The notes below the pieces were generated by a model. That model was not told where the DNA came from, did not search any database, and saw nothing but the letters and a program-made list of their open reading frames with translations. A DNA stretch of 64,000 nt from a virus (Duplodnaviria; Heunggongvirae; Uroviricota; Caudoviricetes), in IMG/VR virus record IMGVR_UViG_3300017691_000005, positions 30,052-94,051 of that record; one strand, given 5' to 3'. The position numbers and the translations under genes are program-made. This document shows, piece after piece, positions 44,533-63,584 of the stretch; position 1 is the stretch's first letter, and the number at the start of each line of letters is the position of its first letter.

Positions 44533-44745
44533 CAAAACGAGGAGTAGTGGCAGACGTGGAGCGAAAGCGCGGCGAGCGCGTCGACTACTGGTGGCCCGAC
44601 TACCGCGACCGCACTGAGAGGCGAACGGCCCTGGTCATCGGCGGCGATCGGAGGAAGGCGCGCCTCCGCACGGCAGAGAACGAGGTCATCACGAAGCCCT
44701 GGGGCGAAGTGCTGACGCACGACGAGCCCTGACCCGAGCGACCGG
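44533..44745 (+). other. high-GC mini-cassette 1 (conserved 5' and 3' boundaries, one small ORF)
   Basis: about 68% GC interior vs about 40-45% flanks; 5' boundary ACGAGGAGTAGTGGCAGACGTGGAGCG, 3' boundary CCTGACCCGAGCGACCGG. Confidence 0.5.
44547..44732 (+). CDS. small Arg/Asp-rich protein encoded by high-GC cassette 1
   Basis: GTG start 6 nt after GAGGAG; MADVERKRGERVDYWWPDYRDRTERRTALVIGGDRRKARLRTAENEVITKPWGEVLTHDEP. Confidence 0.35.
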   Translation: MADVERKRGERVDYWWPDYRDRTERRTALVIGGDRRKARLRTAENEVITKPWGEVLTHDEP

Positions 44746-44835
44746 TATAGGTTGACACAGCCCTAAGCATCAACTAAGATATGAAGTACCAGAAACCGCC
44801 GGGTTTGCTCACGAAATCTTACGGCTTCTGGTCTT

Positions 44836-44918
44836 GCTGGTGTGGTGGAATATGGTATACACGTATGATTTAGGCTCATATGCCGCAAGGCTTGCAGGTT
44901 CGATTCCTGTCACCAGTA
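44836..44918 (+). tRNA. tRNA-Leu (TAG), class II
   Basis: acceptor GCTGGTG/CACCAGT, anticodon arm TATGA-TTTAGGC-TCATA, variable stem GCC-GCAA-GGC, T-arm GCAGG-TTCGATT-CCTGT. Confidence 0.55.
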
Positions 44919-44941
44919 CATAATTTAATATGGACCGATAG

Positions 44942-45013
44942 TGAAATGGCTATCACGCTTCCTTGACTCGGAAGTAATTCGGGTTCGAATCCCGGTCGGT
45001 CTACTGCGCGGTA
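44942..45013 (+). tRNA. tRNA-Val (GAC)
   Basis: acceptor GGACCGA/TCGGTCT, D-arm GTGA-AATGGCTA-TCAC, anticodon arm CTTCC-TTGACTC-GGAAG, T-loop TTCGAAT. Confidence 0.55.
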
Positions 45014-45074
45014 GTGTAAGTAGGATAAGCGCTGTAAGTGAAGGATGATGCGGTAACATCTACCGGAGCGAATC

Positions 45075-45160
45075 AGTGAAAAATCCTAGGCGAGTTTACC
45101 GACTCGTTAGCACCCCGGCCTCATAAGCCGGAAGTGAGGTGTCAAATCCTCCCAAGCAAC
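45075..45160 (+). other. tRNA-like element with CTCATAA (CAT) anticodon-arm hairpin and terminal ACCA; no pairable acceptor
   Basis: CGAGT-TTACCG-ACTCG hairpin, CCGGC-CTCATAA-GCCGG hairpin, GAGG-TGTCAAAT-CCTC T-arm-like hairpin, 3' CAAGCAACCA; resembles element 35043-35112. Confidence 0.25.
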
Positions 45161-45163
45161 CAT

Positions 45164-45246
45164 GCCCTTATGGTGAAATTAGGCAGACACGATTGATTCA
45201 AAATCAATTGCCGCAAGGCGTACCGGTTCGAGTCCGGTTAGGGGTA
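45164..45246 (+). tRNA. tRNA-Leu (CAA), class II
   Basis: acceptor GCCCTTA/TAGGGGT, anticodon arm ATTGA-TTCAAAA-TCAAT, variable stem GCC-GCAA-GGC, T-arm ACCGG-TTCGAGT-CCGGT. Confidence 0.55.
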
Positions 45247-45250
45247 CTCT

Positions 45251-45329
45251 GGGGTAGACGGGTTATTCGACGTTGGTAAAGCCGTATACGGAACCACGAC
45301 GGACTAGGGTTCGACTCCCTACTACTCCA
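45251..45329 (+). other. tRNA-like gene (acceptor plus canonical T-arm) with non-canonical core containing the palindrome CCGTATACGG
   Basis: acceptor GGGGTAG/CTACTCC, T-arm TAGGG-TTCGACT-CCCTA; internal region forms a long hairpin instead of D/anticodon arms. Confidence 0.3.
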
Positions 45330-45348
45330 CTTTATAATTAAATACTAA

Positions 45349-45429
45349 GCCTTAGTGGTGGAACGGCATACACGGCGCACTTAAAATGCGCTGCCGAAAG
45401 GATTGCGGGTTCGAATCCCGCCTAAGGTA
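45349..45429 (+). tRNA. tRNA-Leu (TAA), class II
   Basis: acceptor GCCTTAG/CTAAGGT, anticodon arm GCGCA-CTTAAAA-TGCGC, T-arm GCGGG-TTCGAAT-CCCGC. Confidence 0.6.
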
Positions 45430-45432
45430 CAT

Positions 45433-45613
45433 GGCTAGATACGGTCCTGTGACAACACAGGAAGAGTTAGATATTGCTCTTGAAGAATGGGATGAGTTGT
45501 ATCCTGATCCTGATGAGGAGCCAACTATAGATATATTTGATTATCTAGGTTGGTCATCTTCTGATTTTTATGAGTGGCAACGAACTGGTGTCATTCCAAA
45601 GGAGGAATTGTGA
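45433..45613 (+). CDS. hypothetical acidic protein (start after tRNA-Leu)
   Basis: MARYGPVTTQEELD... ; ORF 45386..45613 trimmed at its tRNA-overlapping 5' end. Confidence 0.35.
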
Positions 45614-45789
45614 AAATAGGAAGCGCAGCATTATTGAGAGATAAGCATGGCAATGAGTATTCCGAGGAAGCAATGTTGCTTGCTTTGCTTTTAAAGGCAA
45701 AAGGTAATGAAAGAGGATCAGAAGAAGAAGACGGTATTCGTAGGCTTCTTGATGATCCAAATATTAAAGGTGAACGCCCCCGTCGATGA
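45610..45789 (+). CDS. hypothetical small protein
   Basis: GTG start after AAGGAGGAATT RBS. Confidence 0.3.
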   Translation: MKIGSAALLRDKHGNEYSEEAMLLALLLKAKGNERGSEEEDGIRRLLDDPNIKGERPRR

Positions 45790-45802
45790 TGGGGGCGTTT
45801 TT
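45768..45802 (+). terminator. rho-independent terminator
   Basis: AACGCCCCCGTCGATGATGGGGGCGTTTTTC. Confidence 0.6.
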
Positions 45803-45833
45803 CTATTTACTGTAACTAAAGTACAATCTAATT

Positions 45834-46253
45834 ATGGCTACCTATGATTTTTCTGCTAAGTCTAAAGCAAACGTGTCTCTACCAGTCGGTATGAATATTA
45901 CTAATCACCGCGTTTTCTTTAAGTACAGTGATTCAACAACAATGAGAAACGCTGTTGAGTTTGAAATTATACCTGTTGTCATGGATGGCAAAAACATAAA
46001 GTTTCAGTTGCCCCTTTTTAATTCAACTATATATTATGAGTTGTACAGCAATCGCTTAGGCAGAATATATCAGCAGCAGCAAGGACAAATAATTAATGTA
46101 CCAGGCGGTCCGTCTCAAGAGTATGTTAGAACTGTAAACTTTAATGAGCCTGATAGAAATGGTAATGTTAATGTTGCTGGTGGAGGATCAGGTAGCGGTC
46201 CTATAGTTTATGTTGATCCAGATAATGAAGGCGTTCTTATTTTAGAATATTAA
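45834..46253 (+). CDS. hypothetical (virion-associated?) protein
   Basis: 139 aa ORF preceding the fiber genes. Confidence 0.4.
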   Translation: MATYDFSAKSKANVSLPVGMNITNHRVFFKYSDSTTMRNAVEFEIIPVVMDGKNIKFQLPLFNSTIYYELYSNRLGRIYQQQQGQIINVPGGPSQEYVRTVNFNEPDRNGNVNVAGGGSGSGPIVYVDPDNEGVLILEY

Positions 46254-46311
46254 GTATCTCCATTTGTATATTTTGATGTTAGAATGACATCAAACAATTG
46301 GAGGGCGATTA

Positions 46312-47520
46312 ATGACTGTAACTGTAGTAAACGGTAATCCCATACAACCTGCCGTTATCAAGGTCAATGTTCCGGGAATTCCTGGGGCTCCTGGTAAAAA
46401 TGTAGAACTAACTAAAAGTGCCACACATATTCAATGGCGAGTAGTAGGCGATACTAACTGGATTAATTTAGTTGCTTTAAGTGAGATTACAGGTTCAGGC
46501 GGTGGAGGCGCACAAGACTTATCTGCCTATGCTAAAACAGCAGATGTTCAAACTGCTCTAAATGCAAAGGTAAATACGACAACAACAATTTCCGCTGGAA
46601 CTGGATTAACAGGTGGTGGTGATTTAAGCGCTAACAGAACATTAGCGGTTACTTATGGAACTGCTGCTGGCACCGCTGCTCAAGGAAATGATTCTAGATT
46701 AACAAACACTAGAACTCCTACTGATAACACTGTATCAACAGCAAAAATAGTTGATGGTGCTGTTACTTCTGCAAAAATAGCAGACGGCACAATCATGAAT
46801 TCTGATGTTTCAGCAACCGCAGCAATTGCTGTATCTAAAATATCTGGTCTTTCCGCTGTAGCAACTACTGGATCTTATAATGATTTAGTAGACAAGCCCG
46901 CCGGAGGCTCTGGCGGAACTGTTTCTGATGCGACAACAACTTCAAAGGGTGTCGTGCAATTGGCGGGTGATTTGGCTGGCACTGCCACTGCTCCCACCGT
47001 TCCGGCGCTGGCTAATAAGGTGAACAGTAACGACTCAAGATTGACAGATGCTCGTACTCCTACCGATGGTTCTGTAACTACTGCCAAATTGGCTGATAAC
47101 TCGGTAACATCTAGTAAGATAGTAGACGGAACAATAGTCAATGCTGATATCTCGACTTCCGCCGCTATTGCTGCTTCTAAAGTAGCAGGGCTTTCTACTG
47201 TTGCTACCACTGGCTCTTATAATGACCTATTAAATAAACCGGCTTCTGGCTCGGGTGGAGTCTCAGTATCTGATGATCCAGATAACTCAGACGCTGTAAT
47301 ACTTGAAACTGGTGTTACAGCCACAGATAGTATTGTTAGTGGTTTTGTTTCTTCTAATGGAAGTCAAACTAACAATGCTGTGAAAACAGTCGCCGCTTCA
47401 CAAATTCCTAGTAATATTGTTCTAGGTGATGGTATAAATAGGATTGTAAAAATGACACAATCTGCATATGACGCATTGGCGACAAAAGATCCAAATACTT
47501 TGTATGTGGTTTCTGAATGA
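46312..47520 (+). CDS. tail fiber protein with duplicated about 75-aa repeat module
   Basis: two copies of ...SRLT(N/D)(T/A)RTPTD..V(S/T)TAK(I/L)(V/A)D..VTS.KI.DGTI.N.D.S..AAIA.SK..GLS.VATTGSYNDL..KP..GSGG. Confidence 0.55.
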   Translation: MTVTVVNGNPIQPAVIKVNVPGIPGAPGKNVELTKSATHIQWRVVGDTNWINLVALSEITGSGGGGAQDLSAYAKTADVQTALNAKVNTTTTISAGTGLTGGGDLSANRTLAVTYGTAAGTAAQGNDSRLTNTRTPTDNTVSTAKIVDGAVTSAKIADGTIMNSDVSATAAIAVSKISGLSAVATTGSYNDLVDKPAGGSGGTVSDATTTSKGVVQLAGDLAGTATAPTVPALANKVNSNDSRLTDARTPTDGSVTTAKLADNSVTSSKIVDGTIVNADISTSAAIAASKVAGLSTVATTGSYNDLLNKPASGSGGVSVSDDPDNSDAVILETGVTATDSIVSGFVSSNGSQTNNAVKTVAASQIPSNIVLGDGINRIVKMTQSAYDALATKDPNTLYVVSE

Positions 47521-49088
47521 CACCTTTATATATAGGATCAAAATCCGTAAAACTTGGTAATTCTAAATTATTTTTGGGAACAAAGTTATTAAACGCTGTT
47601 TCAAGCCAAGTTAACCCAAATAATCTTTGGAAGCCTATACAGCAAGTAGATTACCAACTATCCACTCATCCTGAACTAAAGCCTATTGCTGATCAGCCAC
47701 AGGCAAAATGGATTAATGGTGATACCCCTCAATCAACTATTTCTAGTTGGGCAGCAGAAGCCAACGGTAAAACTATGCTTCTTGTTGTTTACGCTATTCC
47801 CGGTAGAGATAACGGTCAGTATTCAGCCGGTGGGTTCGCTAATCAAACTCAGTATCTAAACTTTTGTAATCTTGTAAAGAATGGTATTGGTTCTGCTCCA
47901 TCTATTATTGTTCTTGAACCAGATGCTTTAGGTTTGTCAGAAGGAATCAGCGATAGCACTCTAAGGGCTGAAAGAATAGATACTCTAAAAAAGGCCGCTG
48001 CTATTTTTGGAAGTATTCCAACTTCAGAAACTTATATTGAAACATCCAAATGGTTGACTCCGGCGAGGAATGCTGAATTACTCCAATCTGTCAATGTTCA
48101 AAATATCTCTGGTATTTGCTTGAATGTTTCCGGATACGAATCTCAGAGTTATTGTTACACTTATGGTAATAATGTTATTTCTATTTTGAACTCAAACGGC
48201 TTAACTGGTAAGAAATTCATTGTTGATTCAAGTAGAAATGGTAATGGAGATCTAACTAGTGACTACGGCGCAGTAGGTCAGCCTTGGATTAATGCTGGTT
48301 TGACATGGTGTAATCCTCCGGGTAGGGCTCTTGGTCCTTTGCCCGGTACAGTTTCAGGTCAGCCGAATTGTAGAGGAACTTTTTGGATTAAAAATCCTGG
48401 TGAGTCTGATGGAACCTTCCCTACAGTTGCTCAGTCTAATTATTTTGGTGAAAATGCTCCCTCTGCTGGTCTTTTCTGGGTACCGGCTGCTAGGTCGTTA
48501 CTTGGCTTAAATCCTCAGTCAACTGCAACCGCTAGAAAACTTTCCAGCCTAAAGGAAAACTTTTCGTCTGGCTTGGGAGAGTTTGCTACGGCATCCAGCG
48601 GAGGTGTTTCTGTAGTTAGTGGCCGCGCCAGAATTGTTGCTGATTCTACTTATGCAACTTTGGGCACAACTAACATATTCTCGTTGAAAGACTCTGAAGT
48701 TTACGCGGCTGTCTATCCGCCATCATCTTTTGATGCCACAGAAACTTGGGCTCAATTCGTTGTTGAATCAAACACCGCCCCAGCGGGAACTAGACTTAGA
48801 ATTCAAGTAGACAATTCTAAAATTGTACTATCAAATGACGCAGGATATTACGACTCGGCGGCGGTAGTGTTGGATTACAGTTTGAACTATCGCTACTTAA
48901 GAATAAGAGAGTCTTCTGGTACTGTTTATTTTGAGACATCAGCGGTTGGAACAGACTGGACGGTACTCAAACAAGTGCCGACCCCTAGTTACATAACAAA
49001 TGCCGCTGATTGTAGATTTGCAGTAATTGCTTATAAAAATACATCAACTGGCTATGTTGAGGTTGATAATGTTAATGTCACCAGTTGA
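47517..49088 (+). CDS. glycoside hydrolase family 6-like (cellulase-type) domain protein, probably tail-associated depolymerase
   Basis: VVYAIPGRDNGQYSAGG and IIVLEPDALG match the two GH6 signature patterns (Cys replaced by Asn in the first). Confidence 0.5.
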   Translation: MTPLYIGSKSVKLGNSKLFLGTKLLNAVSSQVNPNNLWKPIQQVDYQLSTHPELKPIADQPQAKWINGDTPQSTISSWAAEANGKTMLLVVYAIPGRDNGQYSAGGFANQTQYLNFCNLVKNGIGSAPSIIVLEPDALGLSEGISDSTLRAERIDTLKKAAAIFGSIPTSETYIETSKWLTPARNAELLQSVNVQNISGICLNVSGYESQSYCYTYGNNVISILNSNGLTGKKFIVDSSRNGNGDLTSDYGAVGQPWINAGLTWCNPPGRALGPLPGTVSGQPNCRGTFWIKNPGESDGTFPTVAQSNYFGENAPSAGLFWVPAARSLLGLNPQSTATARKLSSLKENFSSGLGEFATASSGGVSVVSGRARIVADSTYATLGTTNIFSLKDSEVYAAVYPPSSFDATETWAQFVVESNTAPAGTRLRIQVDNSKIVLSNDAGYYDSAAVVLDYSLNYRYLRIRESSGTVYFETSAVGTDWTVLKQVPTPSYITNAADCRFAVIAYKNTSTGYVEVDNVNVTS

Positions 49089-49124
49089 TAAAATATATTA
49101 CTTAGATAAAACAAGGAGGACTCA

Positions 49125-50681
49125 TTGTCAATAAGAACACCAAAATTAGTAAACGGTAAGATAGGTTTGTCAACAATTCCCGATGGGATCTCTGCGGACA
49201 AAACCGTAGATGGAAGCAATAATAAAGTATTTACTTCAGCAGAAAAGACAAAACTAGCAGGATTATCAAGTGGTTCAGGTTCTGGCGGAGGGGCTAGTCA
49301 GACAGATATTGCTAATGCTATAGCCACTGAGGGAACTCAAGTTCGTAATACTCTTTTGACATTATTTGGTAACGTCAACTGGAAGATGGATACGGATAAT
49401 GTTCCATACTTTACGGCTATAACCGCAGGAACAAATGCAGGTTCTTCAGGCTCTACAGGTGGAGGTTCTGCTCCCGGCATTGTTTACGCTATTGCCCCTC
49501 CATCGGGGTTGACTGCAATTGCAGCAGACGGTACAACCGATGACCGCGCTAACCTACAGGCGGCCTTAGATTACGTTAAGACAACTTTTGGTGGGGGGAC
49601 AGTCATGTTGCCTGCTAAGACCATTAAGTGTAATACCGGACTATCCATTCCTTCCGGAGTGACCTTGAGGGGCGTATCTGGTAAATCAACACTAGATTTC
49701 TCTAGTATTAGTACTAGTGGAGGTGTGGCAATTAGCAGTAGTGGATCTGGTACATATCCACTGTTAGGTGTTAACGTAAAGGGGCCAAATGGCGGTGACA
49801 AAAATACTTATCCAAGCAACAACTGCACTGGCGTTCAAACTTCTGGTATTGGTGTGACAGTGAGGGATGTAAGTATTACAGGATTCTCTGTTGGCTTAGA
49901 CCTTACTCTTTCTGATTCCTTTTTCTTCTTAGGGGATAATCTATCAATCGGTAATTGTGGAGTTTGTGTTGATATGAATCAGAGGGCTGAACACAATGGA
50001 GGGTCTGTACCATCTGAAAATGGCGAAAGAATGGTATTCCAAAACTGCGCTTTTTATAATTCTCAAGTTGGCTTTGATGTTGCCGGTTCCGGTATAGACG
50101 CATTTTTCTTTGGCACCTCTTTTGACTACTTGGGCTTGCATGGAAAAATTGATGACGGCTTTGTTCACATTGTTGGTTGTCACGTAGAAACAGGTTACGC
50201 GGCCAATAATAACAATTGGGGCTCTATGAACAGGTATATGTTCGACATGGTAAATGAAGGTCGTTTCGAAATATCTAATACAAGATTTGAAGTAAGAGAT
50301 TCTGGGGTTTATGCACTGATTACTCCGGACAGAGGCCCAAATAATTACAATTCAGGTTTTGTAAGACTTGACGGTACAAATACTTGGTATGGTCAACTTC
50401 CTGCTGAGACTCGTCAATTCAATGACAGAGATATGCTTTACTTCCCTGGTAATTCTGCCACTAGAATTGCTTACAGCCCTTTTGCAAGTAAATGGTCTCC
50501 GGTAAGAGCGAGTTACGTTGCTAACGATGGCACTCCTGAGCCAGTGGGACATAGAGCAAGGATTTCTGCTATGAGCGTTTCAACTAACGCAGGTAATCCC
50601 CCTAATTATTCTGTTACAATATCTAGAGATTTAAATTCAGGCGCTACAGCCGCCGACGGATGGGTGGAGGTTTGCTACTAA
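49125..50681 (+). CDS. tailspike/depolymerase with pectate-lyase-like right-handed beta-helix
   Basis: DGTTDDRANLQAALDYV...GGTVMLPAKTIKCNTGLSIPSGVTLRG pectate_lyase_3-type N-terminus; Gly/Ser-rich linker. Confidence 0.55.
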   Translation: MSIRTPKLVNGKIGLSTIPDGISADKTVDGSNNKVFTSAEKTKLAGLSSGSGSGGGASQTDIANAIATEGTQVRNTLLTLFGNVNWKMDTDNVPYFTAITAGTNAGSSGSTGGGSAPGIVYAIAPPSGLTAIAADGTTDDRANLQAALDYVKTTFGGGTVMLPAKTIKCNTGLSIPSGVTLRGVSGKSTLDFSSISTSGGVAISSSGSGTYPLLGVNVKGPNGGDKNTYPSNNCTGVQTSGIGVTVRDVSITGFSVGLDLTLSDSFFFLGDNLSIGNCGVCVDMNQRAEHNGGSVPSENGERMVFQNCAFYNSQVGFDVAGSGIDAFFFGTSFDYLGLHGKIDDGFVHIVGCHVETGYAANNNNWGSMNRYMFDMVNEGRFEISNTRFEVRDSGVYALITPDRGPNNYNSGFVRLDGTNTWYGQLPAETRQFNDRDMLYFPGNSATRIAYSPFASKWSPVRASYVANDGTPEPVGHRARISAMSVSTNAGNPPNYSVTISRDLNSGATAADGWVEVCY

Positions 50682-51190
50682 TGGTTCAAAATAAAAATGT
50701 TCGCACCGCGACAGAAAGTTATGTTGATAGTAAGACTGGCGCAGCAGGCGGTTTTCCAAATTCTTTTGCTGATGTTTATTTAGGAAGTGGAGATGGATCA
50801 ACGGGGAGACAAACCATAGGAGCGTCTTTCACCACTGTGAACTTAGATCAAAAAAATTTTGATCCGAGTAACTTATTTGATGTTTCTAGCCATGAATATA
50901 ATGTGCCCGCTGATGGTGTATATATGATTTCTGCTAGGATACGTATAGTAGATGGACAAAATACAGGTCAAAAAAACTTGGGTATAGGAGTACACACTTC
51001 TAATACAGATCACGTTTCATTTACTTGGATTATTCAGACAGTGACTGGAAGTGAATCTAACCGTAAGACTTACAGTTATCAGAGAATGGGTAAGTTCAAT
51101 GCTAATGAAAAGTTAAGACTCTATACATATTGTGAAGGTGGAGATCAAAGTATTAATAACGCATCTCTATCGATTGTGAGGGTTGCATAA
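50660..51190 (+). CDS. hypothetical tail-associated protein
   Basis: 176 aa ORF. Confidence 0.4.
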   Translation: MGGGLLLMVQNKNVRTATESYVDSKTGAAGGFPNSFADVYLGSGDGSTGRQTIGASFTTVNLDQKNFDPSNLFDVSSHEYNVPADGVYMISARIRIVDGQNTGQKNLGIGVHTSNTDHVSFTWIIQTVTGSESNRKTYSYQRMGKFNANEKLRLYTYCEGGDQSINNASLSIVRVA

Positions 51191-51570
51191 TGCCAGATGT
51201 TGTTCTTCCCGGTGCTCCACCGGCCGCCACTATTGGCAATGAAGATATGCCAGCAAATGTAGATTTAAAGATCTATCAAGGAGATTATAAAGTTTGGTTG
51301 TTTCAAATAGCGGATTCAAATAATACGCCTATTGATGTTTCCAATTTGACTCCAAAGGCTCAATTTAAACTAAATTATATGGATTCGAATCCAATTACTT
51401 TAAATACAACAATTGAAAGCAATCAGGTTAAGATGGAACTTACGTCTTCTCAATCAAATAGTTTAGTTTCTGATGCATATATTTATGATGTTCAATTGAC
51501 TGATTCTTTGGGTAGAGTGAAAACTTATATTACTGGTGATGTCACAGTAGTCCCACAAGTCACTACTTGA
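51190..51570 (+). CDS. hypothetical protein
   Basis: 126 aa ORF. Confidence 0.4.
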   Translation: MPDVVLPGAPPAATIGNEDMPANVDLKIYQGDYKVWLFQIADSNNTPIDVSNLTPKAQFKLNYMDSNPITLNTTIESNQVKMELTSSQSNSLVSDAYIYDVQLTDSLGRVKTYITGDVTVVPQVTT

Positions 51571-51691
51571 ACATTCTAAACTAATTAATTTACTATTGTT
51601 ATTGTTTTGTTATAGGGTCGGTTAGCCTGGTCCGTTTTGCCATGATAATATCTTCTTAGGAAGACCAAACTACGACAAGGATGAGATTAAA

Positions 51692-52633
51692 TTGGCAAAG
51701 CATAGGGCTCAACGACCGTATGAAAGAAAAATTGAACAGTTATCTAAAGTAAATAAACCTAAGATGGCGGCACTGATACTAGTGCCGCCACTTCTTTTGG
51801 GTACAACTCCTGCTTCTTCGATTGAACAAACATCAGAAGCAACTCCAATAGTTCAAGAAGTTGATTCAACTGAAGAGTCTAAAGACTTAAATACTCAGTT
51901 AGTTGCTCTAGACACAAGTACTCCTGACATGTACTATAAGAGCGAGCGCCGCCGCGCTATGGCTTTAGAGCAGATGAATGCTGCTGATGCCGGTTTGAGA
52001 ATACAAGCCCAAGAAGCACAAGCGGCCCAAGAGCGTATTGATGCTGAAAAAGCCGAGCAAGAAAGAATAATTGCAGAGCAAAAGGCAAAAGAGGATGCTG
52101 AACAACAGCGTTTAGCAGAAGAAAAGCGCAAGGCTGAACAAAAGGTTGTAGCCGTAAAGAAGGCTGAACCTAAGAAAGAAAAAATAGAACTTACTGAGGC
52201 TGAACAAGCACAAGCCAGTAAAGTTCCCGATCAAGAACTTTCAGCCACAGAATCATTTAAGATATCTGAAACAGTCAAAGAAACAAATAACTCAGATGTT
52301 TTTAGTATTGCTGAAAGGTACATCGGAGTTCCATACAAGTATGGTGGTACTGATCCAGACACAGGTATTGACTGTTCGGCTTACGTTAGACTAGTCTATA
52401 GTCAACTTGGTGTGGATCTACCCCGAACCTCTGGTGAGCAAGCAAAAAGAGGCGTGGCGGTTTCTGCTGATGAGGCGCGCCCGGGGGATTTAGTGTTTTT
52501 CGGTAGCACTGTTCACCACGTAGGTATTTATGCTGGCAACGGGAAGATGATAGATTCCCGTAAGACTGGCACCACAATAGATTATAGAGATATGTGGTAT
52601 ACCGAAAGAATCCAATACAGAAGAGTCCTTTAA
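51692..52633 (+). CDS. NlpC/P60 family peptidoglycan endopeptidase with N-terminal signal/TM segment and Ala/Glu/Lys-rich coiled coil (lysin candidate)
   Basis: C-terminal DCSAYVRLVYSQLGVDLPRTSGEQ...GDLVFFGS...HHVGIYAGNGKMIDS (Cys-His catalytic pair); hydrophobic MAALILVPPLLLGTTPASS. Confidence 0.6.
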   Translation: MAKHRAQRPYERKIEQLSKVNKPKMAALILVPPLLLGTTPASSIEQTSEATPIVQEVDSTEESKDLNTQLVALDTSTPDMYYKSERRRAMALEQMNAADAGLRIQAQEAQAAQERIDAEKAEQERIIAEQKAKEDAEQQRLAEEKRKAEQKVVAVKKAEPKKEKIELTEAEQAQASKVPDQELSATESFKISETVKETNNSDVFSIAERYIGVPYKYGGTDPDTGIDCSAYVRLVYSQLGVDLPRTSGEQAKRGVAVSADEARPGDLVFFGSTVHHVGIYAGNGKMIDSRKTGTTIDYRDMWYTERIQYRRVL

Positions 52634-52657
52634 TGGTTTAACATTTGGAGAGAAAGT

Positions 52658-54538
52658 ATGCGTCCTAATACACAACTTATCACTCAGCAAGGAGATCTTG
52701 GCGGCGAGAAAGTTGCAATGTCTTTTGATGAAAATAGCATTGCACACCTTATGGGTGTTCTTAGCGACCTTTACAGTGATCCAGAACTAGCAGTAATTCG
52801 AGAATATAGTACTAATGCCCTTGATTCTCATAAAGAGGCTGGAACTACGGCTCCCATTGAGATCTCAACTCCTAACCGTCTGTCTCCCTTCTTTAAGGTA
52901 AAGGACTACGGCGTGGGGATGAGCGCTGAAGATATTCGTAATGTATATTCTAAATACGGTGCTTCAACAAAACGGGGTACAAACACCCAAACGGGAATGC
53001 TTGGTCTAGGATGTAAGAGTGCTCTGACTTATACCAGTCAGTTCACTGTTATTGGAATTAAGAATGGGATCAAGACTCAAGTTTCCATTTCACGCTCTGC
53101 TGATGGCGGGGGAGTGATGGAGGTTATTGACGAAACACCCACCGACCTTCCTAATGGTGTAGAAATTAGTATTCCTGCACAGAGAAGTCACAACTTCGAT
53201 GAAAAGATTATAGACTTTTTTAGGTATTGGGATATTGACTCCGTACTCATTGATGGAGAAAAGCGTAAAGACAACAAGTTTATCAAAATTAGTGACGATC
53301 TTTATCTAGATCCTCGTCGTAACAGCGGCCCAGATAAAATCGTCATGGGTAATATTTCTTATCCCGTCGATACAAAAATCAATTATGATTTTAACTTTCC
53401 CGTAGTTTTTTACGCACCCATTGGCTCAGTAGACTTCACTCCAAGTCGTGAGCAGATGCATATGACCATTAGGACTAATGCTTACATACAGCAACTTAAA
53501 AAAGATGCTGAAAAAATAGTGGAAACATATACCAACGATGCTCTAGCCAATGCCACAACACGGGCAGAAGCGTTGATTGAATCTGCTAAACTGCACAACG
53601 TTCTTCGTATGCAAACAATTACGTGGAACAAAGAAGTTGTGCCTTCTTATTTTACTCGGGATGGGTGGAAGACGAAAGGTTATGGCTACAGCACTAACAA
53701 AGTCTACACTTTGATTCCATATGAAAAGATTGTCACAAACTTTCCTTGTGTCAGTGTTTCTCCAAACCAGAAGAAAAAAATTACTGAGTGGAAGAAACTG
53801 AATAATGTTGATGAAAATGTCCCACTGGTAATTTTTGATAAGTTGCCAGATAACCCTTGGCTAAAAGATTTTCCAGCAATTGACTGGAAAGATATTGACG
53901 CTATTCAACTACCGAAGGCTCCACGGGCTCCGGCTAAAAAGAGGGTTGTTCAGCCTCAAGAAGTACTTCAGTTTTCTGACGGAACTTACGTTACCCCAGC
54001 CCCGACCGGTAAGGATCTGGTATACTGGTTCAAGTCCAACCGGTACCAGGGTTGGCAGTATGAGCCGGTGAGGTCTCTTCTTAAGAATGCTGTAGTCGCT
54101 GAAATACAGCCACGGCAAGAAGATAAATTTAAAAGAAAGAACCCTAAGGCTCAAGAGTTCCGTGAGTACCTTAAATTAAAGATTAAAGAACAGGTGGATG
54201 CACTACCTCCCAACCCACCTGTTAAGGTGCTTCTAGCCCATGAGGATGAACGATGGGCTTACGGTAAAAACATCAATGACTACGACGATCCTGATCTCAA
54301 GAACATTATTGCAAGATTTAAAGAAAGTCGTAATGGTGTTGATCCCCAAGTTAAAAAGATCGATGAAATTATTGATCTTGCCGTTCGATGGGGCGTACCT
54401 CATAAATATGAAATCAAAAAAATCAACCAACCAAGCGTAATTGTTAACAGGTATCCGTTTGTTCACCAAAGTTATCACCACCACAATCTTATACAGCCAA
54501 TGAATGCTGTATACCATCAGTATTACAAAACTAACTAA
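52658..54538 (+). CDS. rIIA: rIIA-like protein (GHKL ATPase fold)
   Basis: LAVIREYSTNALDSH / IEISTPNRLSPFFKVKDYGVGMS / YGASTKRGTNTQTGMLGLGCKSALTY align with T4 rIIA IRAVVRELITNMIDAH / [23 protein letters not shown] / [26 protein letters not shown]. Confidence 0.7.
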   Translation: MRPNTQLITQQGDLGGEKVAMSFDENSIAHLMGVLSDLYSDPELAVIREYSTNALDSHKEAGTTAPIEISTPNRLSPFFKVKDYGVGMSAEDIRNVYSKYGASTKRGTNTQTGMLGLGCKSALTYTSQFTVIGIKNGIKTQVSISRSADGGGVMEVIDETPTDLPNGVEISIPAQRSHNFDEKIIDFFRYWDIDSVLIDGEKRKDNKFIKISDDLYLDPRRNSGPDKIVMGNISYPVDTKINYDFNFPVVFYAPIGSVDFTPSREQMHMTIRTNAYIQQLKKDAEKIVETYTNDALANATTRAEALIESAKLHNVLRMQTITWNKEVVPSYFTRDGWKTKGYGYSTNKVYTLIPYEKIVTNFPCVSVSPNQKKKITEWKKLNNVDENVPLVIFDKLPDNPWLKDFPAIDWKDIDAIQLPKAPRAPAKKRVVQPQEVLQFSDGTYVTPAPTGKDLVYWFKSNRYQGWQYEPVRSLLKNAVVAEIQPRQEDKFKRKNPKAQEFREYLKLKIKEQVDALPPNPPVKVLLAHEDERWAYGKNINDYDDPDLKNIIARFKESRNGVDPQVKKIDEIIDLAVRWGVPHKYEIKKINQPSVIVNRYPFVHQSYHHHNLIQPMNAVYHQYYKTN

Positions 54539-54546
54539 GGAGAAAT

Positions 54547-55650
54547 ATGAAATACTCTCTTGTCAACCACGACACCTTCTCTAACATTACCGTTGTTCAC
54601 GACGGGGAACTTTATACTGCTAGTAACGATCATCCTGCTTTTGAATCTATCGTAAAGGGAGCGATGAGTGGAGATGAATCCATTATTTCGCTATTTAACC
54701 CCGAGAAGGCGGTAGCAGAATCGTTTAACAAGGTATCTGAACGTGTATCACTACGATCAGGTAAGGTATATCTAGACAATGAACTTGTAGATGGCTCTCT
54801 TACTGACCAAATTGTTCGATTCCACAGCGAGGGACAAGACTTCACTCCTCTTGTGAAGTTCCTAGAGAACATTGCTAATAATCCTTCCTCTCACAGTCGT
54901 ACTCAACTTTATGATTGGCTGCGTAACCGAGACTTCACTATTGATTCTGACGGTCATATTATTGGTTACAAGGGCGTTCAGACAAGTACAAATAGTGAAG
55001 GTGTTACTGAGTACCATTCCATTAGCCGTGGTGACGCGATCGTTGATGGTGTCGAGCACAGTGGGGCGATTCCTAACTATGTGGGTGCAGTTGTTGAAAT
55101 GCCTCGTAGCGCTGTTACATGGAACCCCAATATTGCCTGCAACACTGGCCTGCACGCCGGTACATGGCGTTATGCAAGTGACTTTGCCCGTGGCGCTACT
55201 TTGACCGTTAGCATTAATCCTCGTGACGTTGTGTCCGTTCCTCACGACTCTGACTCTGAAAAGATTCGTGTATGCCGATACACTGTTCTTGAAGTAGTTG
55301 ATAGTCCTTATGGTTCTTCTTATCACGATACGACTCCTGTTGAAGAGTCTACTGATGATGCAATTGACTATGAAACTGAAAATGACGAAGACACTGTGGC
55401 GACTGATCCCGCCAGTGATGAGGCGCCCAAAAGCGGAGTTTTTGATGACTCGCAGGAATCTGTTTCAGACGTTGAAAGCGAAGATGAAGACGATTCTGAC
55501 CTAAACGCTGAATGGGATGCTTCTTACGCTTATGAATATAACGAAGATGAAGACGAAGATGATGGAGACGACGAAGATGATCTTGAAGAAGAGCAAACTG
55601 TCGATCCTCCCGTAAAGGGTCTTGATTTTGGCAAATGGGGTACAAACTAA
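54547..55650 (+). CDS. rIIB: rIIB-like protein with acidic C-terminal tail
   Basis: FTPLVKFLENIANNPSSHSRTQLYDWL...DSDGHIIGYKGV and GAVVEMPRSAVTWNPNIACNTGLHAGTWRYA...INPRDVVSVPHDSDSEKIRVCRYTVLEVV align with T4 rIIB. Confidence 0.65.
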   Translation: MKYSLVNHDTFSNITVVHDGELYTASNDHPAFESIVKGAMSGDESIISLFNPEKAVAESFNKVSERVSLRSGKVYLDNELVDGSLTDQIVRFHSEGQDFTPLVKFLENIANNPSSHSRTQLYDWLRNRDFTIDSDGHIIGYKGVQTSTNSEGVTEYHSISRGDAIVDGVEHSGAIPNYVGAVVEMPRSAVTWNPNIACNTGLHAGTWRYASDFARGATLTVSINPRDVVSVPHDSDSEKIRVCRYTVLEVVDSPYGSSYHDTTPVEESTDDAIDYETENDEDTVATDPASDEAPKSGVFDDSQESVSDVESEDEDDSDLNAEWDASYAYEYNEDEDEDDGDDEDDLEEEQTVDPPVKGLDFGKWGTN

Positions 55651-55939: not shown

Positions 55940-56046
55940 TAAATACTATTACGGTGCTGTCGCTAGAGCCTCAGCGCTTATTGCGGGGTATCATGATTGG
56001 ATGAATGTCACTAAATGGCCTATCGAAGATGACACATGGGAAGAGG

Positions 56047-56223
56047 ATGAGATCTTTGGCTAGTCTAGAGTGTTTTGATTGTGATACAGTAATCACTTCT
56101 AAGAGCGTCCACGATTTTCAGAATTGCAAGTGTGGAAATATCTTTGTCGATGGTGGAAATGATTACACTCGTATTGGCTGGAAAAACGGGAACTGGCGTG
56201 AAATTGACGCAAGCGAAGAGTAG
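56047..56223 (+). CDS. small Zn-binding protein (start MRSLASLECFDCDT after GGAAGAGG RBS)
   Basis: CFDCD...CKCG motifs. Confidence 0.3.
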   Translation: MRSLASLECFDCDTVITSKSVHDFQNCKCGNIFVDGGNDYTRIGWKNGNWREIDASEE

Positions 56224-56364
56224 GAGCAGACGAGATGGAGCGCACCGCAGACGACGTGATCGCCGACGTGAAGGACGCCGTGCGAGGTGAGAGCGACGAT
56301 GACAGCATCCGCGTGCCCGTGCGGGACCTGAGACTGCTGCTCGACCGCCTGACCTGAGCGACCG
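56218..56364 (+). other. high-GC mini-cassette 2 (conserved boundaries, one small ORF)
   Basis: about 66% GC; 5' GAGTAGGAGCAGACGAGATGGAGCG, 3' CCTGACCTGAGCGACCG (16 of 17 identical to cassette 1). Confidence 0.5.
56235..56357 (+). CDS. small acidic protein encoded by high-GC cassette 2 (40 aa)
   Basis: MERTADDVIADVKDAVRGESDDDSIRVPVRDLRLLLDRLT; RBS AGGAG. Confidence 0.3.
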   Translation: MERTADDVIADVKDAVRGESDDDSIRVPVRDLRLLLDRLT

Positions 56365-56385
56365 ATACCATCAGACGAAATCAAA

Positions 56386-57570: not shown

Positions 57571-57903
57571 ATGAAAAGGGTAAATACAATCTCCGACACA
57601 GTAATAAATCAGTTAGGTCTTGATCTTCAGTCTTTAGAGTGGCAGAAACTAAGTCTCTGTCCGGGGGTTCCTCCCAAACTCTTCTATGAAGACTATGAAA
57701 AAGATGCAGAAAATGCCAAACAAATAGATGCTTTATGTTTATCTTGTCCAGTGATGAAGCAGTGTGCTGAAGCGGGCATGGATGGGGAGCACGGTGTTTG
57801 GGGTGCTATTTTTTGGGACGGCACTGGCAAACCTGACAAATCAAAGAATAAACATAAAACTGAAAGTGTTTGGGAAGAGATAAGGAGCAGGCTTAGTGAT
57901 TGA
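57571..57903 (+). CDS. WhiB-like (Wbl) Fe-S transcription factor
   Basis: C-x26-C-x2-C-x5-C (LCPGV...LCLSCPVMKQC) followed by the GVWGA turn. Confidence 0.5.
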   Translation: MKRVNTISDTVINQLGLDLQSLEWQKLSLCPGVPPKLFYEDYEKDAENAKQIDALCLSCPVMKQCAEAGMDGEHGVWGAIFWDGTGKPDKSKNKHKTESVWEEIRSRLSD

Positions 57904-59503: not shown

Positions 59504-59511
59504 GGAAGATA

Positions 59512-60490: not shown

Positions 60491-60840
60491 TATTGTTCAA
60501 TATGATGATGCCCTCATTGGTGAAATAGACGATGAGGGTACGCTCTTAGTATTTCATCGTTGGCAAGTTAAAGAGATTATTGCTTAAGTTTTAACTCTCA
60601 GTGGTTGCGCCGTCCCGCTCCGTCATGTTAGGTTGTGACAACAGCAGCGACCAAAGAGGGGGTTGTGCATGGACGATATGTTTATTATTCGTGACCAAGA
60701 AACAACTTTGTTGGCTGTAAGAATGCCGAATGATTTCTTTGCTGTTGGTACCGTTAGTAAAGACGGAATACCTAGTGTGTATATGAGCAAAGAACAAGTT
60801 AATGCATTCTGCAAATGGGTCAACCAGCAGGAGGACAATA

Positions 60841-60999
60841 ATGTCTGATACATTCACCCGGGAGCAGATTCTTAATCTTATCTGGATGAAAATAGGAAGT
60901 ATTCCCGGATTCGACCTTAATTCTCAAATTGCCAGGGATACCATTACAGACTATTTTGATAATGAACTAACCTTGATGAAGGAGAATCCTTATGCGTAA
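60841..60999 (+). CDS. hypothetical small protein
   Basis: RBS AGGAGGACAATAATG. Confidence 0.35.
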   Translation: MSDTFTREQILNLIWMKIGSIPGFDLNSQIARDTITDYFDNELTLMKENPYA

Positions 61000-61345
61000 C
61001 ACACCTAGGCGTCCCAAGCGGTATCTAAATGTTACAGGTTTTATTGTCGTGGGAGCATTTATTGCTCTAGTTGTTCTTGCTATCACATTCTTTACAAGTA
61101 AGCATGAAGAAGTTATTACTGTCAGTGACAAAGAGCGGGTGTGTTCTGCCAATACTCATGACTGTAAGTATCTTGTTTTTACCGAAAACGGTACTTATGA
61201 GAACACTGACACGCTTCTAGCGTTTAAGTTCAACTCTTCTGACATTCAAGGACAACTCAAGCCTGGTGAAACGTATACTGTTGACGTTTGGGGTTTTAGG
61301 CAGCCTATTCTTTCTTGGTATCCGAACATCTTGGAGGTTAAGTAA
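60992..61345 (+). CDS. membrane-anchored protein
   Basis: 117 aa, N-terminal TM. Confidence 0.4.
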   Translation: MRNTPRRPKRYLNVTGFIVVGAFIALVVLAITFFTSKHEEVITVSDKERVCSANTHDCKYLVFTENGTYENTDTLLAFKFNSSDIQGQLKPGETYTVDVWGFRQPILSWYPNILEVK

Positions 61346-61521
61346 TGTATCGTTTTTGCATTTATCAAGCCGGTTATGAAAGCATCTGGGAAACCGGCAA
61401 ACTAGCCAGCGCAATTGCTCGTCTAGACGAGTACAAAGATATGTATCTAGATGTTGCAAAGATGTGGATTGAAAAAGATGGAACCGTTATTTACGAATTC
61501 GACTACGAGGATGCGGCATGA
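61345..61521 (+). CDS. hypothetical small protein
   Basis: 58 aa, TAATG coupling. Confidence 0.35.
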   Translation: MYRFCIYQAGYESIWETGKLASAIARLDEYKDMYLDVAKMWIEKDGTVIYEFDYEDAA

Positions 61522-61829
61522 GCGAAAAAATTGTCTGTCGGATCGACGCTAACAAGCGTGAGGTTATTGTCTTCCGTAAGGATGCGGACGGAGAAACCAC
61601 ACAGGAGCGTTATAAGGCGGTACTACTCAAGGATGCTGAGTGGGGCGCGGGGATGGTGAGAGGCGAAGTGGTAGAAACTTATAAATTTCCTGTCACATCT
61701 AATATGCCTAGGCGTGCATATTACAACTCCAATCACGTTCCACGCTATGTGGATAAGTACACCAGGAAAATTCTTACTGAGTCGTCTGCGGTTATGCTCA
61801 CTGGAAGTTCCGCGCTCTATGCAGACTGA
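61518..61829 (+). CDS. hypothetical protein
   Basis: 103 aa ORF. Confidence 0.4.
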   Translation: MSEKIVCRIDANKREVIVFRKDADGETTQERYKAVLLKDAEWGAGMVRGEVVETYKFPVTSNMPRRAYYNSNHVPRYVDKYTRKILTESSAVMLTGSSALYAD

Positions 61830-62295
61830 ACAGGCTCTAGGCAATCTAGATTCAGCAAAGGCAATTTTCGAAGCAGATCGTAAAGGCTGTGTTCCTGATG
61901 GATGGAATCGTGTAGGTTCGGGAGCCTATCGTAATGCTTACCGATCTCCTGATGGTTTTGTGTATAAGGTTTGTAAGCACAGATTTAATTCGAGTGAAGA
62001 CAATGTAGAAGAAATTAACGCATATCAGAAGATTCTGGCTAAAAAACTCACTAAAAGTGGATGGCGTGTAGCGCCGGTAGTCAGTTATGATTTTGTTCAC
62101 GGTTCTTCTAATGTAACAGTCAATGTTATGGAGTTTGTAGAAGGACAACATGAAAAGATGACTTTGGATAACCAATATGAAAAATGGGAAGAAATCGAGA
62201 ATGCTTTCTTTGCATTTGGTTTGATTGACGGTCATTGCGGGAACTATATAGTGACAGGTAATGGTGAAAAGGTAATTATAGATTTGGCTTCGTAA
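61819..62295 (+). CDS. small protein-kinase-like protein (atypical kinase catalytic loop)
   Basis: LIDGHCGNYIV...KVIIDLAS resembles the kinase catalytic loop HxDxxxxN plus a metal-binding DxG-like motif; start moved to MQTEQ. Confidence 0.3.
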   Translation: MQTEQALGNLDSAKAIFEADRKGCVPDGWNRVGSGAYRNAYRSPDGFVYKVCKHRFNSSEDNVEEINAYQKILAKKLTKSGWRVAPVVSYDFVHGSSNVTVNVMEFVEGQHEKMTLDNQYEKWEEIENAFFAFGLIDGHCGNYIVTGNGEKVIIDLAS

Positions 62296-62306
62296 AGGAG
62301 ATCTAG

Positions 62307-62576
62307 ATGGCAGTGTCAGATTTAGATCTCCTTGCGTTGGAGATCGAAGAACATAATATTCCATGTGATTCTCTTTGGCATGAAGAGTTTGCATGGCCTA
62401 TGGAGAGAGCAACTTACATCCTTGATGCTTTCTGCAATAACTGTAGGACCAGTTTCAATAATCTTATGATGGACGATATTTGTATTGCCTACTTAGAAAA
62501 ACGTGGCAGTCATAATTTCCATTGTAGAAAGTGTCGCAAGGTTGGCTCAACGGTATGGTCTTACATCCCAATTTGA
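62307..62576 (+). CDS. Cys-rich protein
   Basis: 89 aa with CNNC...CRKC. Confidence 0.35.
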   Translation: MAVSDLDLLALEIEEHNIPCDSLWHEEFAWPMERATYILDAFCNNCRTSFNNLMMDDICIAYLEKRGSHNFHCRKCRKVGSTVWSYIPI

Positions 62577-62643
62577 TATCTATTTGATACCGAAAGGGAT
62601 ATACTGATCAAATCCCGCCCGCTTGGGTAATTTTAGGAGAATT

Positions 62644-62829
62644 ATGGAAGATACCGCTAGAGTTTTGGAGGAAACTCTAAAAAGAGTTAACATTGCGCTT
62701 GAGAGTGGATCACTGGTAGAGCGTAAGCAGCAACGTGTTCAAGAAAACTTTGACGTTGTACGCAGTAGAATTTCATCTATAGAAAATCGCATGAGTTCAT
62801 TCGATATTAAATATCCATACGGCAACTAG
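62644..62829 (+). CDS. hypothetical protein
   Basis: RBS TTTTAGGAGAATTATG. Confidence 0.35.
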   Translation: MEDTARVLEETLKRVNIALESGSLVERKQQRVQENFDVVRSRISSIENRMSSFDIKYPYGN

Positions 62830-62837
62830 GAGAAACA

Positions 62838-63026
62838 ATGAAAATCACCAAGCCGATCTTTGCTGAGGACATTGCAGTTGGCGACTACCTGTTTGAAGGA
62901 GAGGTAGTTTCAGTACAAGATAATTATGAGAGTACTGAATGTGTTGATGTTTATGTTGAGGGCGAAGATGACCCAATCGTTTATCGATGTGATGAAACAG
63001 TTGAAATTTACCTAGACCGAGCATAA
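62838..63026 (+). CDS. hypothetical acidic protein
   Basis: 62 aa ORF. Confidence 0.35.
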   Translation: MKITKPIFAEDIAVGDYLFEGEVVSVQDNYESTECVDVYVEGEDDPIVYRCDETVEIYLDRA

Positions 63027-63029
63027 CTA

Positions 63030-63068
63030 TTAAGGTGCGGGGCTCAAAAAAGGCTCCGCACTTTTTTA
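63030..63068 (+). terminator. rho-independent terminator
   Basis: GTGCGGGGCTC-AAAAAA-GGCTCCGCAC followed by TTTTTT. Confidence 0.55.
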
Positions 63069-63103
63069 GTCTCATCGTAATACTTTATAAAAATAGGAGA
63101 GAC

Positions 63104-63361
63104 ATGTCCGAGTGCGGGTGTGACCCTGGTGATAATGAGAATGGTTATCACGAAACAAGATCAGATGCCTGTAAAGCAATTGAACTAGAGCAATGGGCTG
63201 TTGCAGTTAAATTAGGTAGACAGATGGCTTATGAAGAGTTTAAAAAGACTCATTCCCGTTTTGACTGTTTAGTGGCTTACCCTGATGAGTATTTTGAAGA
63301 GGCTTGGGAGCGTGCTGAAGAGTCTGTAAATAGATCTATTGAGCGTTCCAAAAGATCTTGA
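63104..63361 (+). CDS. hypothetical protein
   Basis: RBS AGGAGAGACATG. Confidence 0.35.
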   Translation: MSECGCDPGDNENGYHETRSDACKAIELEQWAVAVKLGRQMAYEEFKKTHSRFDCLVAYPDEYFEEAWERAEESVNRSIERSKRS

Positions 63362-63427
63362 GAAACTTTGTTCAAGTTGTTGCATAGACCGACCGATGCA
63401 GGTAATGTTCATTCCAACGAACCGAAC

Positions 63428-63584
63428 TAACCGAGGAGTTGTGACAGATGCTCGCTGACCATTTCGAGGTGGCCCTGAATGAGTGCAACTGCGGTCTGAC
63501 CTTCTCCGACCAGCGACTGTTTGTAGTCCACTACGCCTACATGCAGATGTGCGAGCCCCGGCCGCGTCCAGCCTGAATCGACCG
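63428..63584 (+). other. high-GC mini-cassette 3 (conserved boundaries, one small ORF)
   Basis: about 60% GC; 5' AACCGAGGAGTTGTGACAGATG (18 of 22 identical to cassette 1), 3' CCTGAATCGACCG. Confidence 0.45.
63448..63576 (+). CDS. small Cys-containing protein encoded by high-GC cassette 3 (42 aa)
   Basis: MLADHFEVALNECNCGLTFSDQRLFVVHYAYMQMCEPRPRPA. Confidence 0.25.
   Translation: MLADHFEVALNECNCGLTFSDQRLFVVHYAYMQMCEPRPRPA

Follow-up and report, generated by a model that had tools for sequence, protein, structure and literature searches.

GC-rich mini-gene cassettes with common terminal modules in a low-GC actinophage and copies of two of them in high-GC phage contigs

Three short GC-rich cassettes, designated as c1, c2 and c3, were analysed in a 64,000-nt stretch of an uncultured phage (IMG/VR virus record IMGVR_UViG_3300017691_000005, positions 30,052 to 94,051), the whole of which is referred to as the window. 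Each cassette carries one small open reading frame (ORF) between a conserved 5' module and a conserved 3' module (boundary blocks), and the three encoded proteins are mutually unrelated. Copies of c1 and c2, delimited by the same blocks, were found in actinophage contigs of 70-72% GC; to look for the boundary motifs in related phages had been proposed in a first-pass annotation made from the sequence alone. The cassettes were almost certainly acquired from high-GC phages, and they are promoterless, translation-ready mini-gene units that lie within operons in a read-through position. The best explanation on balance, put forward with moderate confidence, is short-homology recombination within the terminal modules, with the cassettes coming from high-GC phages.

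Composition and terminal modules of the cassettes

The GC content of the window was 42.0% (mean of 0.420 and standard deviation of 0.062 in sliding 100-nt segments), for which the first-pass annotation had given about 45%. Over the whole window, 100-nt GC of at least 0.62 was reached at four places only, three of which correspond to the cassettes, namely 44523-44771 (maximum GC 0.73), 56187-56383 (maximum GC 0.69) and 63485-63584 (maximum GC 0.62). All three cassettes are read on the plus strand and were delimited at 44538-44745 (c1, 208 nt, GC 0.69), 56214-56364 (c2, 151 nt, GC 0.66) and 63432-63584 (c3, 153 nt, GC 0.60, with more diverged blocks), respectively, and their composition deviates accordingly from that of the genome (0.60-0.69 versus 0.42). 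The fourth place (1071-1247) was tried as a further cassette and rejected, the boundary blocks being absent and the island being internal to a larger ORF (about 1034-1374) with a Gly/Ala/Pro-rich low-complexity segment (1048-1270) beside tail genes.

The three high-GC islands with unrelated ORFs of 40-61 aa, as described in the first-pass annotation, were borne out by the sliding GC and the ORF list. GC at the third codon position (GC3) was 0.88, 0.85 and 0.77 for c1, c2 and c3, respectively, compared with 0.35 +/- 0.05 (maximum 0.47) in 48 phage ORFs, so that windowed GC and codon usage (GC3 of 0.77-0.88 versus 0.35) both carry a foreign signature. Codon periodicity was strong in the annotated frame of the cassettes, with GC3 well above the GC content of the second codon position. 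Searches of the three proteins against Pfam, PHROG and PADLOC gave zero matches. Among the otherwise plus-strand long ORFs, a reverse-strand ORF at 35450-35716 (76-88 aa, GC about 0.58-0.60, no Pfam match) was also observed, and it may be another foreign acquisition.

All three cassettes start with CGAGGAGTAG-NN-GCAGACG, which in full reads CGAGGAGTAG-NN-GCAGACG-(0-3 nt)-ATG/GTG. This module closes the frame of the upstream gene by TAG (by TGA in c3) and brings along a Shine-Dalgarno sequence as well as the start codon. All three end with CCTGA(CCYGAG)CGACCG, of which the full form is (..TGCTG..GAC..)CCTGACCYGAGCGACCG with TGA available in two frames. The stop codons within each junction close two or three reading frames. 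In the window, GAGTWGNRRCAGAYG occurs three times, in the cassettes only (0.2 expected), and CCTGA-N0-8-CGACCG is confined to the 3' ends of the three cassettes (0.08 expected), although these counts are partly circular, both patterns having been derived from the cassette sequences themselves. The quoted strings of the near-identical 5' blocks with Shine-Dalgarno site and start codon, and of the conserved 3' blocks with stop codon, were found as the first-pass annotation had given them. On proper alignment of c1 with c2 the similarity of the blocks was not lost (16/19 identical at the 5' side and 16/17 at the 3' side), whereas a global alignment with gaps gave about 43% for the middles, a value provisionally taken as composition background. 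Within the 3' block (CCTGACCYGAG) the stop codon is not always in the same frame, the first TGA being used in c1 and the second one in c2, and the blocks are therefore conserved at the DNA level.

The 5' block of c1 (CGAGGAGTAGTGGCAGACGTGGAGCG, 44538-44563, plus strand) contains the TAG stop, a GAGGAG Shine-Dalgarno sequence and the GTG start at 44556, from which a basic ORFan protein of 58 aa is encoded (44556-44732); this start is more likely than GTG 44547, which would give 61 aa. In its 3' block (CCTGACCCGAGCGACCGG, 44728-44745) the first TGA is the stop codon. The 5' block of c2 (CGAAGAGTAGGAGCAGACGAGATGGAGCG, 56214-56242, plus strand) contains the TAG (56221-56223) at which the upstream DUF7695 gene (56005-56223), extending into the cassette, terminates. 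The ORF of c2 (56235-56357) encodes an acidic ORFan protein of 40 aa, and the second TGA of the extended 3' block (CTGCTGCTCGACCGCCTGACCTGAGCGACCG, 56334-56364) is its stop codon. Judged from the reading frame, the DUF7695 gene would, without c2, run in frame to a TGA overlapping the start ATG of the following gene (ATGA), which is consistent with insertion and not decisive. The ORF of c3 (63448-63576, plus strand) encodes 42 aa, and the only match of this protein was an ankyrin-repeat protein (E = 2e-4), with a weak resemblance to one repeat.

Neither promoter-like nor terminator-like sites were found inside or at the edges of the cassettes, and inverted repeats of at least 8 nt were absent from them. 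Since promoter and terminator, inverted repeats, unusual RNA structure and family match are all absent, the cassettes are not classical morons, integron cassettes, insertion sequences (IS) or miniature inverted-repeat transposable elements (MITEs). An integrase, transposase or recombinase was not found among the Pfam-annotated genes of the window (about 1-12,150 and 38,350-64,000, with about 12,150-38,350 sampled via selected large ORFs only), in the flanks or among the neighbours of the donor copies described below, apart from a single weak HNH match.

Copies in high-GC phage contigs and positions of the breakpoints

c2 is identical at 149 of 151 nt to copies on two Logan contigs of 71-72% GC (L040 and L041), the similarity extending from CGAGGAGTAGGAGC to GAGCGACCG, and the sole database match of its protein was an identical protein (P0002). 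The only two differences are located at cassette positions 4 and 141, both in the blocks, and the 136 nt between them (positions 5-140) are identical. The chance that both would fall within the outer 15 nt is about 0.01, and this is the pattern expected from crossovers inside the blocks. In L040, a 237-aa helix-turn-helix gene before c2 ends with CTGACTGGACCGACCG, directly followed by AGGAGTAGG; this gene was considered as a linked recombinase and rejected, having just a weak helix-turn-helix match. L040 (end 1626) and L041 (end 1279) were also seen to terminate both at the c2 3' block (GAGCGACCG; GAGCGAC), an indication that the assembly graph forks right at the c2 boundary in the high-GC contigs.

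For c1, the scan of IMG/VR with the 5' block gave one true match among chance ones, on a viral contig of 75.6 kb and 72% GC (L011, also present as L050, L056 and L061-63), in which the c1 copy is about 92% identical. Among 5.8 billion sequences, homologues of the c1 protein formed one cluster only, and through it a second and different setting was found in a phage contig of 70.5% GC (L038/L058), also with about 92% identity. Genes for endolysin, endonuclease VII and WhiB are present in the c1-bearing high-GC contigs, and those for endonuclease VII and endolysin lie near c1 in L038/L058. In the three-way alignment, similarity was confined to the segment from (CGA)GGAGTAGTGGCAGACG to GAGCGACCG(G), every flank being different, with identity at background. 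Over all the comparisons, the left limit of the similarity was (CGA)GGAGTAG and the right one GAGCGACCG(G). Between c1 and the high-GC copies there are 14-16 differences, of which 8-10 are at codon position 3, and 54 of the 58 residues are kept; an AT-ward bias, as a sign of amelioration, was absent (6 changes versus 6). Based on the third-position bias, the retained residues and the lack of AT-ward bias, c1 of the window appears to have come in recently from a related lineage of high GC and not to be an old resident.

In 20 kb of the high-GC c1 phage, block-like sequences occur only directly before and after c1, and they are therefore cassette ends and not a genome-wide junction motif. In the donor contigs, ATGA or GTGA overlaps are the rule between native genes, in comparison with spacers of 19-31 nt at the cassette-type genes. 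In L011/L062, an unrelated gene for a 55-aa membrane protein lies directly before c1 and adjoins its 5' block, so that the two form a tandem pair; by manual comparison, the 3' end of this gene is identical at 23 of 28 positions, in the same frame, to the c2 3' end (...D-x-L-T-stop). Just past the c1 3' block of L038 (1385-1405), the sequence GCAGACG-CAGCGAGGC was observed, which copies the c1 5' region GCAGACG[TGGAGCGA]CAGCGAGGC minus 8 nt and may be what is left of another cassette start or of a circular joint. CGA is present at both junctions in 5/6 copies and is possibly part of the blocks; L038 is without the left CGA.

In the low-GC phage, each cassette is preceded on its left side by 14 nt similar to its own 3' block. 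The left flank of c1 (ATTGACCAAAACGA, 44527-44540, plus strand) matches its 3' block at 9/14 positions, and its AATTGAC, which holds the TGA stop of the upstream gene (44349-44531), is shared in the same register with the left flank of c2 (ATTGACGCAAGCGA, 56203-56216, plus strand). The left flank of c3 is ACCGAACTAACCGA, to be compared with CCTGACCYGAGCGA for the 3' block. Outside CGA, left flank and 3' block agree at 6/11 positions (p about 0.02 each for c1 and c2, calculated post hoc), and TAnCATCA follows CGACCG in both c2 and c3. Paralogy of the upstream genes was rejected as the cause of the flank similarity, these genes being unrelated. A target-site duplication of the usual kind, as looked for at the suggestion of the first-pass annotation, was not found; just an imperfect 14-nt direct repeat (YTGACnnRArCGA) is present in the left flank and in the 3' block, i.e. 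on both sides of the cassette.

Copies of c3 were not found, and a degenerate c3 pattern gave one chance match in IMG/VR. About 35 nt upstream of c3, a solitary block-like sequence (TTGCATAGACCGACCGAT, 63380-63397, plus strand) is located, which is possibly an unoccupied or relic site, and CGACCGAT there is identical to the c2 end plus the c2 flank. The first-pass annotation had also placed a degenerate relative at 38963-39095. A candidate decayed cassette was delimited there (38958-39095, plus strand), with a raised GC (0.53 versus 0.36 in the flanks), 41 open codons immediately after the upstream TGA and a left junction (ATTTGACGTGACCGA|A, the bar marking the junction) similar to that of c2; an intact ORF with a start codon was absent from it, and the relationship is accordingly kept as a weak one.

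Further searches were done with the blocks, the proteins and the neighbourhoods. Neither megablast of the cassette neighbourhoods nor tblastn with the three mini-proteins gave a match in the phage collection. Beyond the one contig, the block patterns gave mostly chance matches in IMG/VR, of which L029, L034 and L001 were rejected as ordinary gene junction or intragenic, and the scan of JGI metagenomes returned only the two c1 contigs. In GTDB (185,579 species genomes) there was no true copy, no relative of the c1 protein, and none of the 48 matches of the 5' block was accompanied by the 3' block. With respect to the source, given by the first-pass annotation as a high-GC actinobacterial host or another phage lineage, it is the phage contigs that carry the copies, and no copy was obtained from host genomes; the cassettes thus appear to stem from other phages and not from host chromosomes. 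The neighbours of c1 in the high-GC phage recovered only the same contig when used as queries, and in a blastn search of the phage collection the high-GC c1 region matched Streptomyces phages at dCMP deaminase only.

Proposed movement and rival explanations

The idea of the first-pass annotation that foreign cargo between conserved linkers is exchanged at its boundaries gained support from the copies ending at the same blocks, from which the recombination itself would follow. We infer the recombination mechanism, the direction of transfer and the expression and function of the small proteins. In the proposed mechanism, the modules would act as portable homology arms, and short-homology recombination within them would carry the cassettes from one co-infecting phage to another. 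The cargo could be swapped into a resident cassette, or an excised unit could integrate at a 3'-module-like site (YTGACnnRArCGA|CCG). General recombination functions of the phage or the host would do the work, and a UvsX/RecA-like recombinase is encoded in the window. The cassettes would be expressed by read-through, with the terminal modules doubling as translational adaptors. Short-homology recombination is preferred because there are no travelling enzyme and no inverted repeats or hairpins, because the c2 differences lie within the modules, and because a RecA/UvsX-type gene is present. As a tentative extension, adaptor-flanked actinophage cassettes of this kind, enzyme-less or trans-mobilised, may form a class not described before, namely minimal mobile units of about 150-210 nt of which the termini would be both recombination sites and universal translational adaptors, with 3' stops in several frames.

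Several points weigh against short-homology recombination. The family is tiny, with three cargos in the window and one or two more in the donors, and the generality of the modules rests on few instances from few metagenomes. For efficient homologous recombination, mismatched arms of about 15-30 nt are on the short side. In c3 the blocks are degenerate, and a donor of this cassette was not found. Empty sites were not seen, a low-GC phage relative without the cassettes was not found, and the RIIB relatives in IMG/VR that were used in the empty-site search are just 28% identical. The statistics of the direct repeats and of the target similarity are modest and were calculated post hoc.

Insertion at specific sites by a trans-acting recombinase or nuclease, similar to integron- or Xer-dependent insertion, was considered and is rather unlikely. 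A circular joint ...CCTGACCYGAGCGA|GGAGTAG... would recombine at a CGA core with the target ATTGACnnAAnCGA|CCGnTAnCATCA, and the junctions would be hybrid attL and attR sites. The imperfect 14-nt direct repeats at each cassette, the fixed-register target flanks (AATTGAC for c1 and c2, TAnCATCA for c2 and c3), the CGACCG unchanged at 6/6 right ends and the left junction in L011, which equals exactly the predicted cassette-to-cassette joint CCTGACATGAGCGAGGAGTAG, fit such a route, but recombinase genes were not found in the Pfam-covered parts of the window or beside the donor copies, inverted-repeat half-sites of the tyrosine-recombinase type and an attC-like hairpin are lacking, and the left junction of L038 is without CGA. 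Illegitimate recombination with selection, the general model of actinophage mosaicism, also has a low probability. The blocks would then be translation signals of one unsampled high-GC lineage, standing before and after many of its genes, and the breakpoints would fall on them only because selection retains functional genes as wholes. On either side, however, the breaks of no fewer than five independent junction pairs coincide to within about 3 nt, and the 3' block, which extends about 28 nt into the coding sequence and is identical at 16/17 positions between unrelated cargos, has no obvious translational role past the stop codon; for these two reasons illegitimate recombination is less likely. 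The blocks are moreover not repeated elsewhere in the 20 kb of the donor phage, and both c2 differences are inside the blocks, whereas the 5' block with its Shine-Dalgarno site and start codon, which is akin to the 13-bp start-associated sequences (SAS) of mycobacteriophages (PMC3203893), the occurrence of CGA-GGAG before other genes of the donor contigs and the failure to find an enzyme would agree with it.

A reading of the islands as regulatory elements or structured non-coding RNAs, with ORFs that arose by chance from the high GC, is very improbable. In AT-rich genomes, GC-rich islands frequently turn out to be RNA genes, and reverse-strand ORFs of 55-90 aa also span the islands, but Rfam matched only tRNAs in the window and no family at the cassettes, the predicted RNA folding of the cassettes was weaker than that of shuffled controls (z = +1.43, +0.83 and +1.11), and the codon periodicity together with the third-position substitution bias of c1 and its 54/58 retained residues points to coding. 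Least credible is an assembly artefact in which high-GC reads were mis-joined into a low-GC contig. The three junction pairs are spanned unbroken also in the MEGAHIT assembly ERZ27250522 and in the Logan contigs of SRR6987550, each insert is precisely intergenic with functional stop and start geometry, and c1 is 8% different from every high-GC copy found, so that it was not assembled from the reads of those copies; on the other side, the donor and the low-GC phages are in neighbouring ENA accessions (ERZ272504xx-7xx), maybe from one project, and have identical stretches of more than 31 nt in common.

The phage, related systems and significance

The window is contained in a MEGAHIT contig of 133,800 bp (ENA ERZ27250522, k141_53334), and the same phage is present in SRR6987550 (Logan contigs), where three of four contigs are 100% identical and the fourth has 1 mismatch in 8,460 nt. 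Its genes encode a DnaB-like helicase, a primase, a DnaE-type polymerase, the UvsX/RecA-like recombinase, a Ro-like protein, rIIA and rIIB homologues, a GH6 domain protein, an NlpC/P60 protein and WhiB; 28 tRNA genes were called by ARAGORN, and nearly all the long ORFs are on the plus strand. The nearest cultured relatives by DnaE (45% identity) are the Streptomyces cluster-BE phages, which have genomes of about 133 kb and about 40 tRNAs (PMC5764925). The phage is an uncultured, low-GC, tRNA-rich, BE-like actinophage, distantly related to cluster BE. Based on the DnaE identity and the presence of WhiB and Lsr2 genes, the host is very probably a high-GC actinobacterium. The WhiB gene is located at 57571-57903 of the window, and an Lsr2-like DNA-binding gene of 60-64% GC was observed about 3.2 kb past the window end (L044, 4526-5053). 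WhiB and Lsr2 are hallmarks of phages on high-GC actinobacteria, and AT-rich DNA is silenced by Lsr2, which is of note for a phage of 42% GC.

Other features of the window were recorded as well. Genes unusual for an actinophage are located in 46312-55650, namely those for a tail-tip protein, which has Gly-rich repeats in common with the minor tail proteins of Mycobacterium and Gordonia phages, for the GH6 domain protein (cellulase family), for the NlpC/P60 peptidase and for rIIA and rIIB. Directly 3' of c1, a near-consensus sigma-70-type promoter (44752-44780; TTGACA, 17-nt spacer, TAAGAT) points to a tRNA-Leu/Val/Leu/Leu cluster (44836-45430). tRNA-like sequences uncalled by ARAGORN were seen at 45251-45332, where the Rfam tmRNA model was matched end to end in 82 nt (42.9 bits, gathering threshold 47, E = 3e-14), at 27808-27894 (tRNA-Sec match at 36 bits) and at 34814-34884 (weak tRNA match), and T-arm-like repeats were seen at 27717, 32791 and 37224. 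In the tRNA region, a GC-rich (0.59) non-coding segment at 30549-30715, which ends in the T-arm-like GGAGGTTCGATTCCTCC and has no ARAGORN or Rfam call, may represent a tRNA-like gene that is long or contains an intron.

By analogy, the closest counterpart of the cassettes appears to be the modular shuffling mediated by PeSLs in T4-type phages, in which ORFan genes lie between promoter-terminator motifs that recombine and can give rise to mini-circles (PMC2839356; PMC4122927). In both, short conserved boundary motifs surround unrelated non-essential small genes and serve, in the cassettes presumably, as recombination sites that shuffle genes without an enzyme of the element, and in the cassettes, too, the same motif surrounds unrelated ORFans and coincides with inter-phage breakpoints. 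A PeSL consists of a sigma-70 early promoter and a stem-loop terminator, whereas the cassette blocks are translation junctions with neither; excised mini-circles have been proposed as vectors for PeSLs. The present elements further differ in their actinobacterial hosts and in an exchange across a gap of 30 GC points. Morons of lambdoid and other phages are, according to Juhala, Hendrix and colleagues, reportedly extra genes of deviant composition with their own promoter and terminator. The cassettes are like them in lying as genes of deviant composition between operon genes, presumably to the benefit of the phage or the host, but classical morons are not known to have common termini, whereas the cassettes have both termini in common and no signals of their own; strictly, the label 'moron' used in the first-pass annotation therefore does not apply.

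Integron cassettes are likewise promoterless single-ORF units, of which the ORF can extend into a conserved 3' recombination module, and resemblance is also seen in the core direct repeats at both junctions and in the tandem arrangement in the donor contigs L011 and L040. They differ in that IntI, attI and an attC-type imperfect palindrome were not found here, and in that the cassettes of the window lie at three distant loci and not in one array and have a conserved 5' module too. The SAS of Cluster K mycobacteriophages (13-bp GGGATAGGAGCCC) stand 3-7 bp before the starts of unrelated genes, with many per genome (PMC3203893). As in the SAS/ESAS, an asymmetric motif with a Shine-Dalgarno core precedes unrelated actinophage starts, the upstream stop being sometimes inside (PMC3203893), but the sequence is another one, the cassette 5' block has three copies in 64 kb and one in the 20 kb of the donor, and SAS are unpaired with a 3' block and are not reported to delimit transferred segments. 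The cassettes have in common with the mycobacteriophage mobile elements MPME1 and MPME2, MITEs and IS that they are small discrete insertions at varied actinophage positions. MPME1/2 span about 440 bp, with an ORF of 123 aa and inverted repeats of 11 bp, and MITEs and IS have terminal inverted repeats and target-site duplications; the cassettes, in contrast, are 151-208 nt with variable cargo and no inverted repeats.

Phage genomes are mosaics, but how a single small gene passes at the molecular level from one phage to an unrelated one has mostly been deduced from junctions that are old and blurred. The c2 transfer is fresh (149/151 nt) and concerns genomes 30 GC points apart, so that donor and recipient can be told base by base, with sharp breakpoints on the same short sequences across different cargos. 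The cassettes also favour a high-GC actinobacterial host for this uncultured low-GC, tRNA-rich phage. If the blocks are portable recombination and translation adaptors, the PeSL idea would be extended from the transcription signals of T4-like phages to translation junctions in actinophages, and a testable handle would be available on the spread of ORFan mini-proteins, possibly for host takeover or anti-defence. If the proposed class is real, ORFan genes could plug into any operon of any co-infecting phage, regardless of GC.

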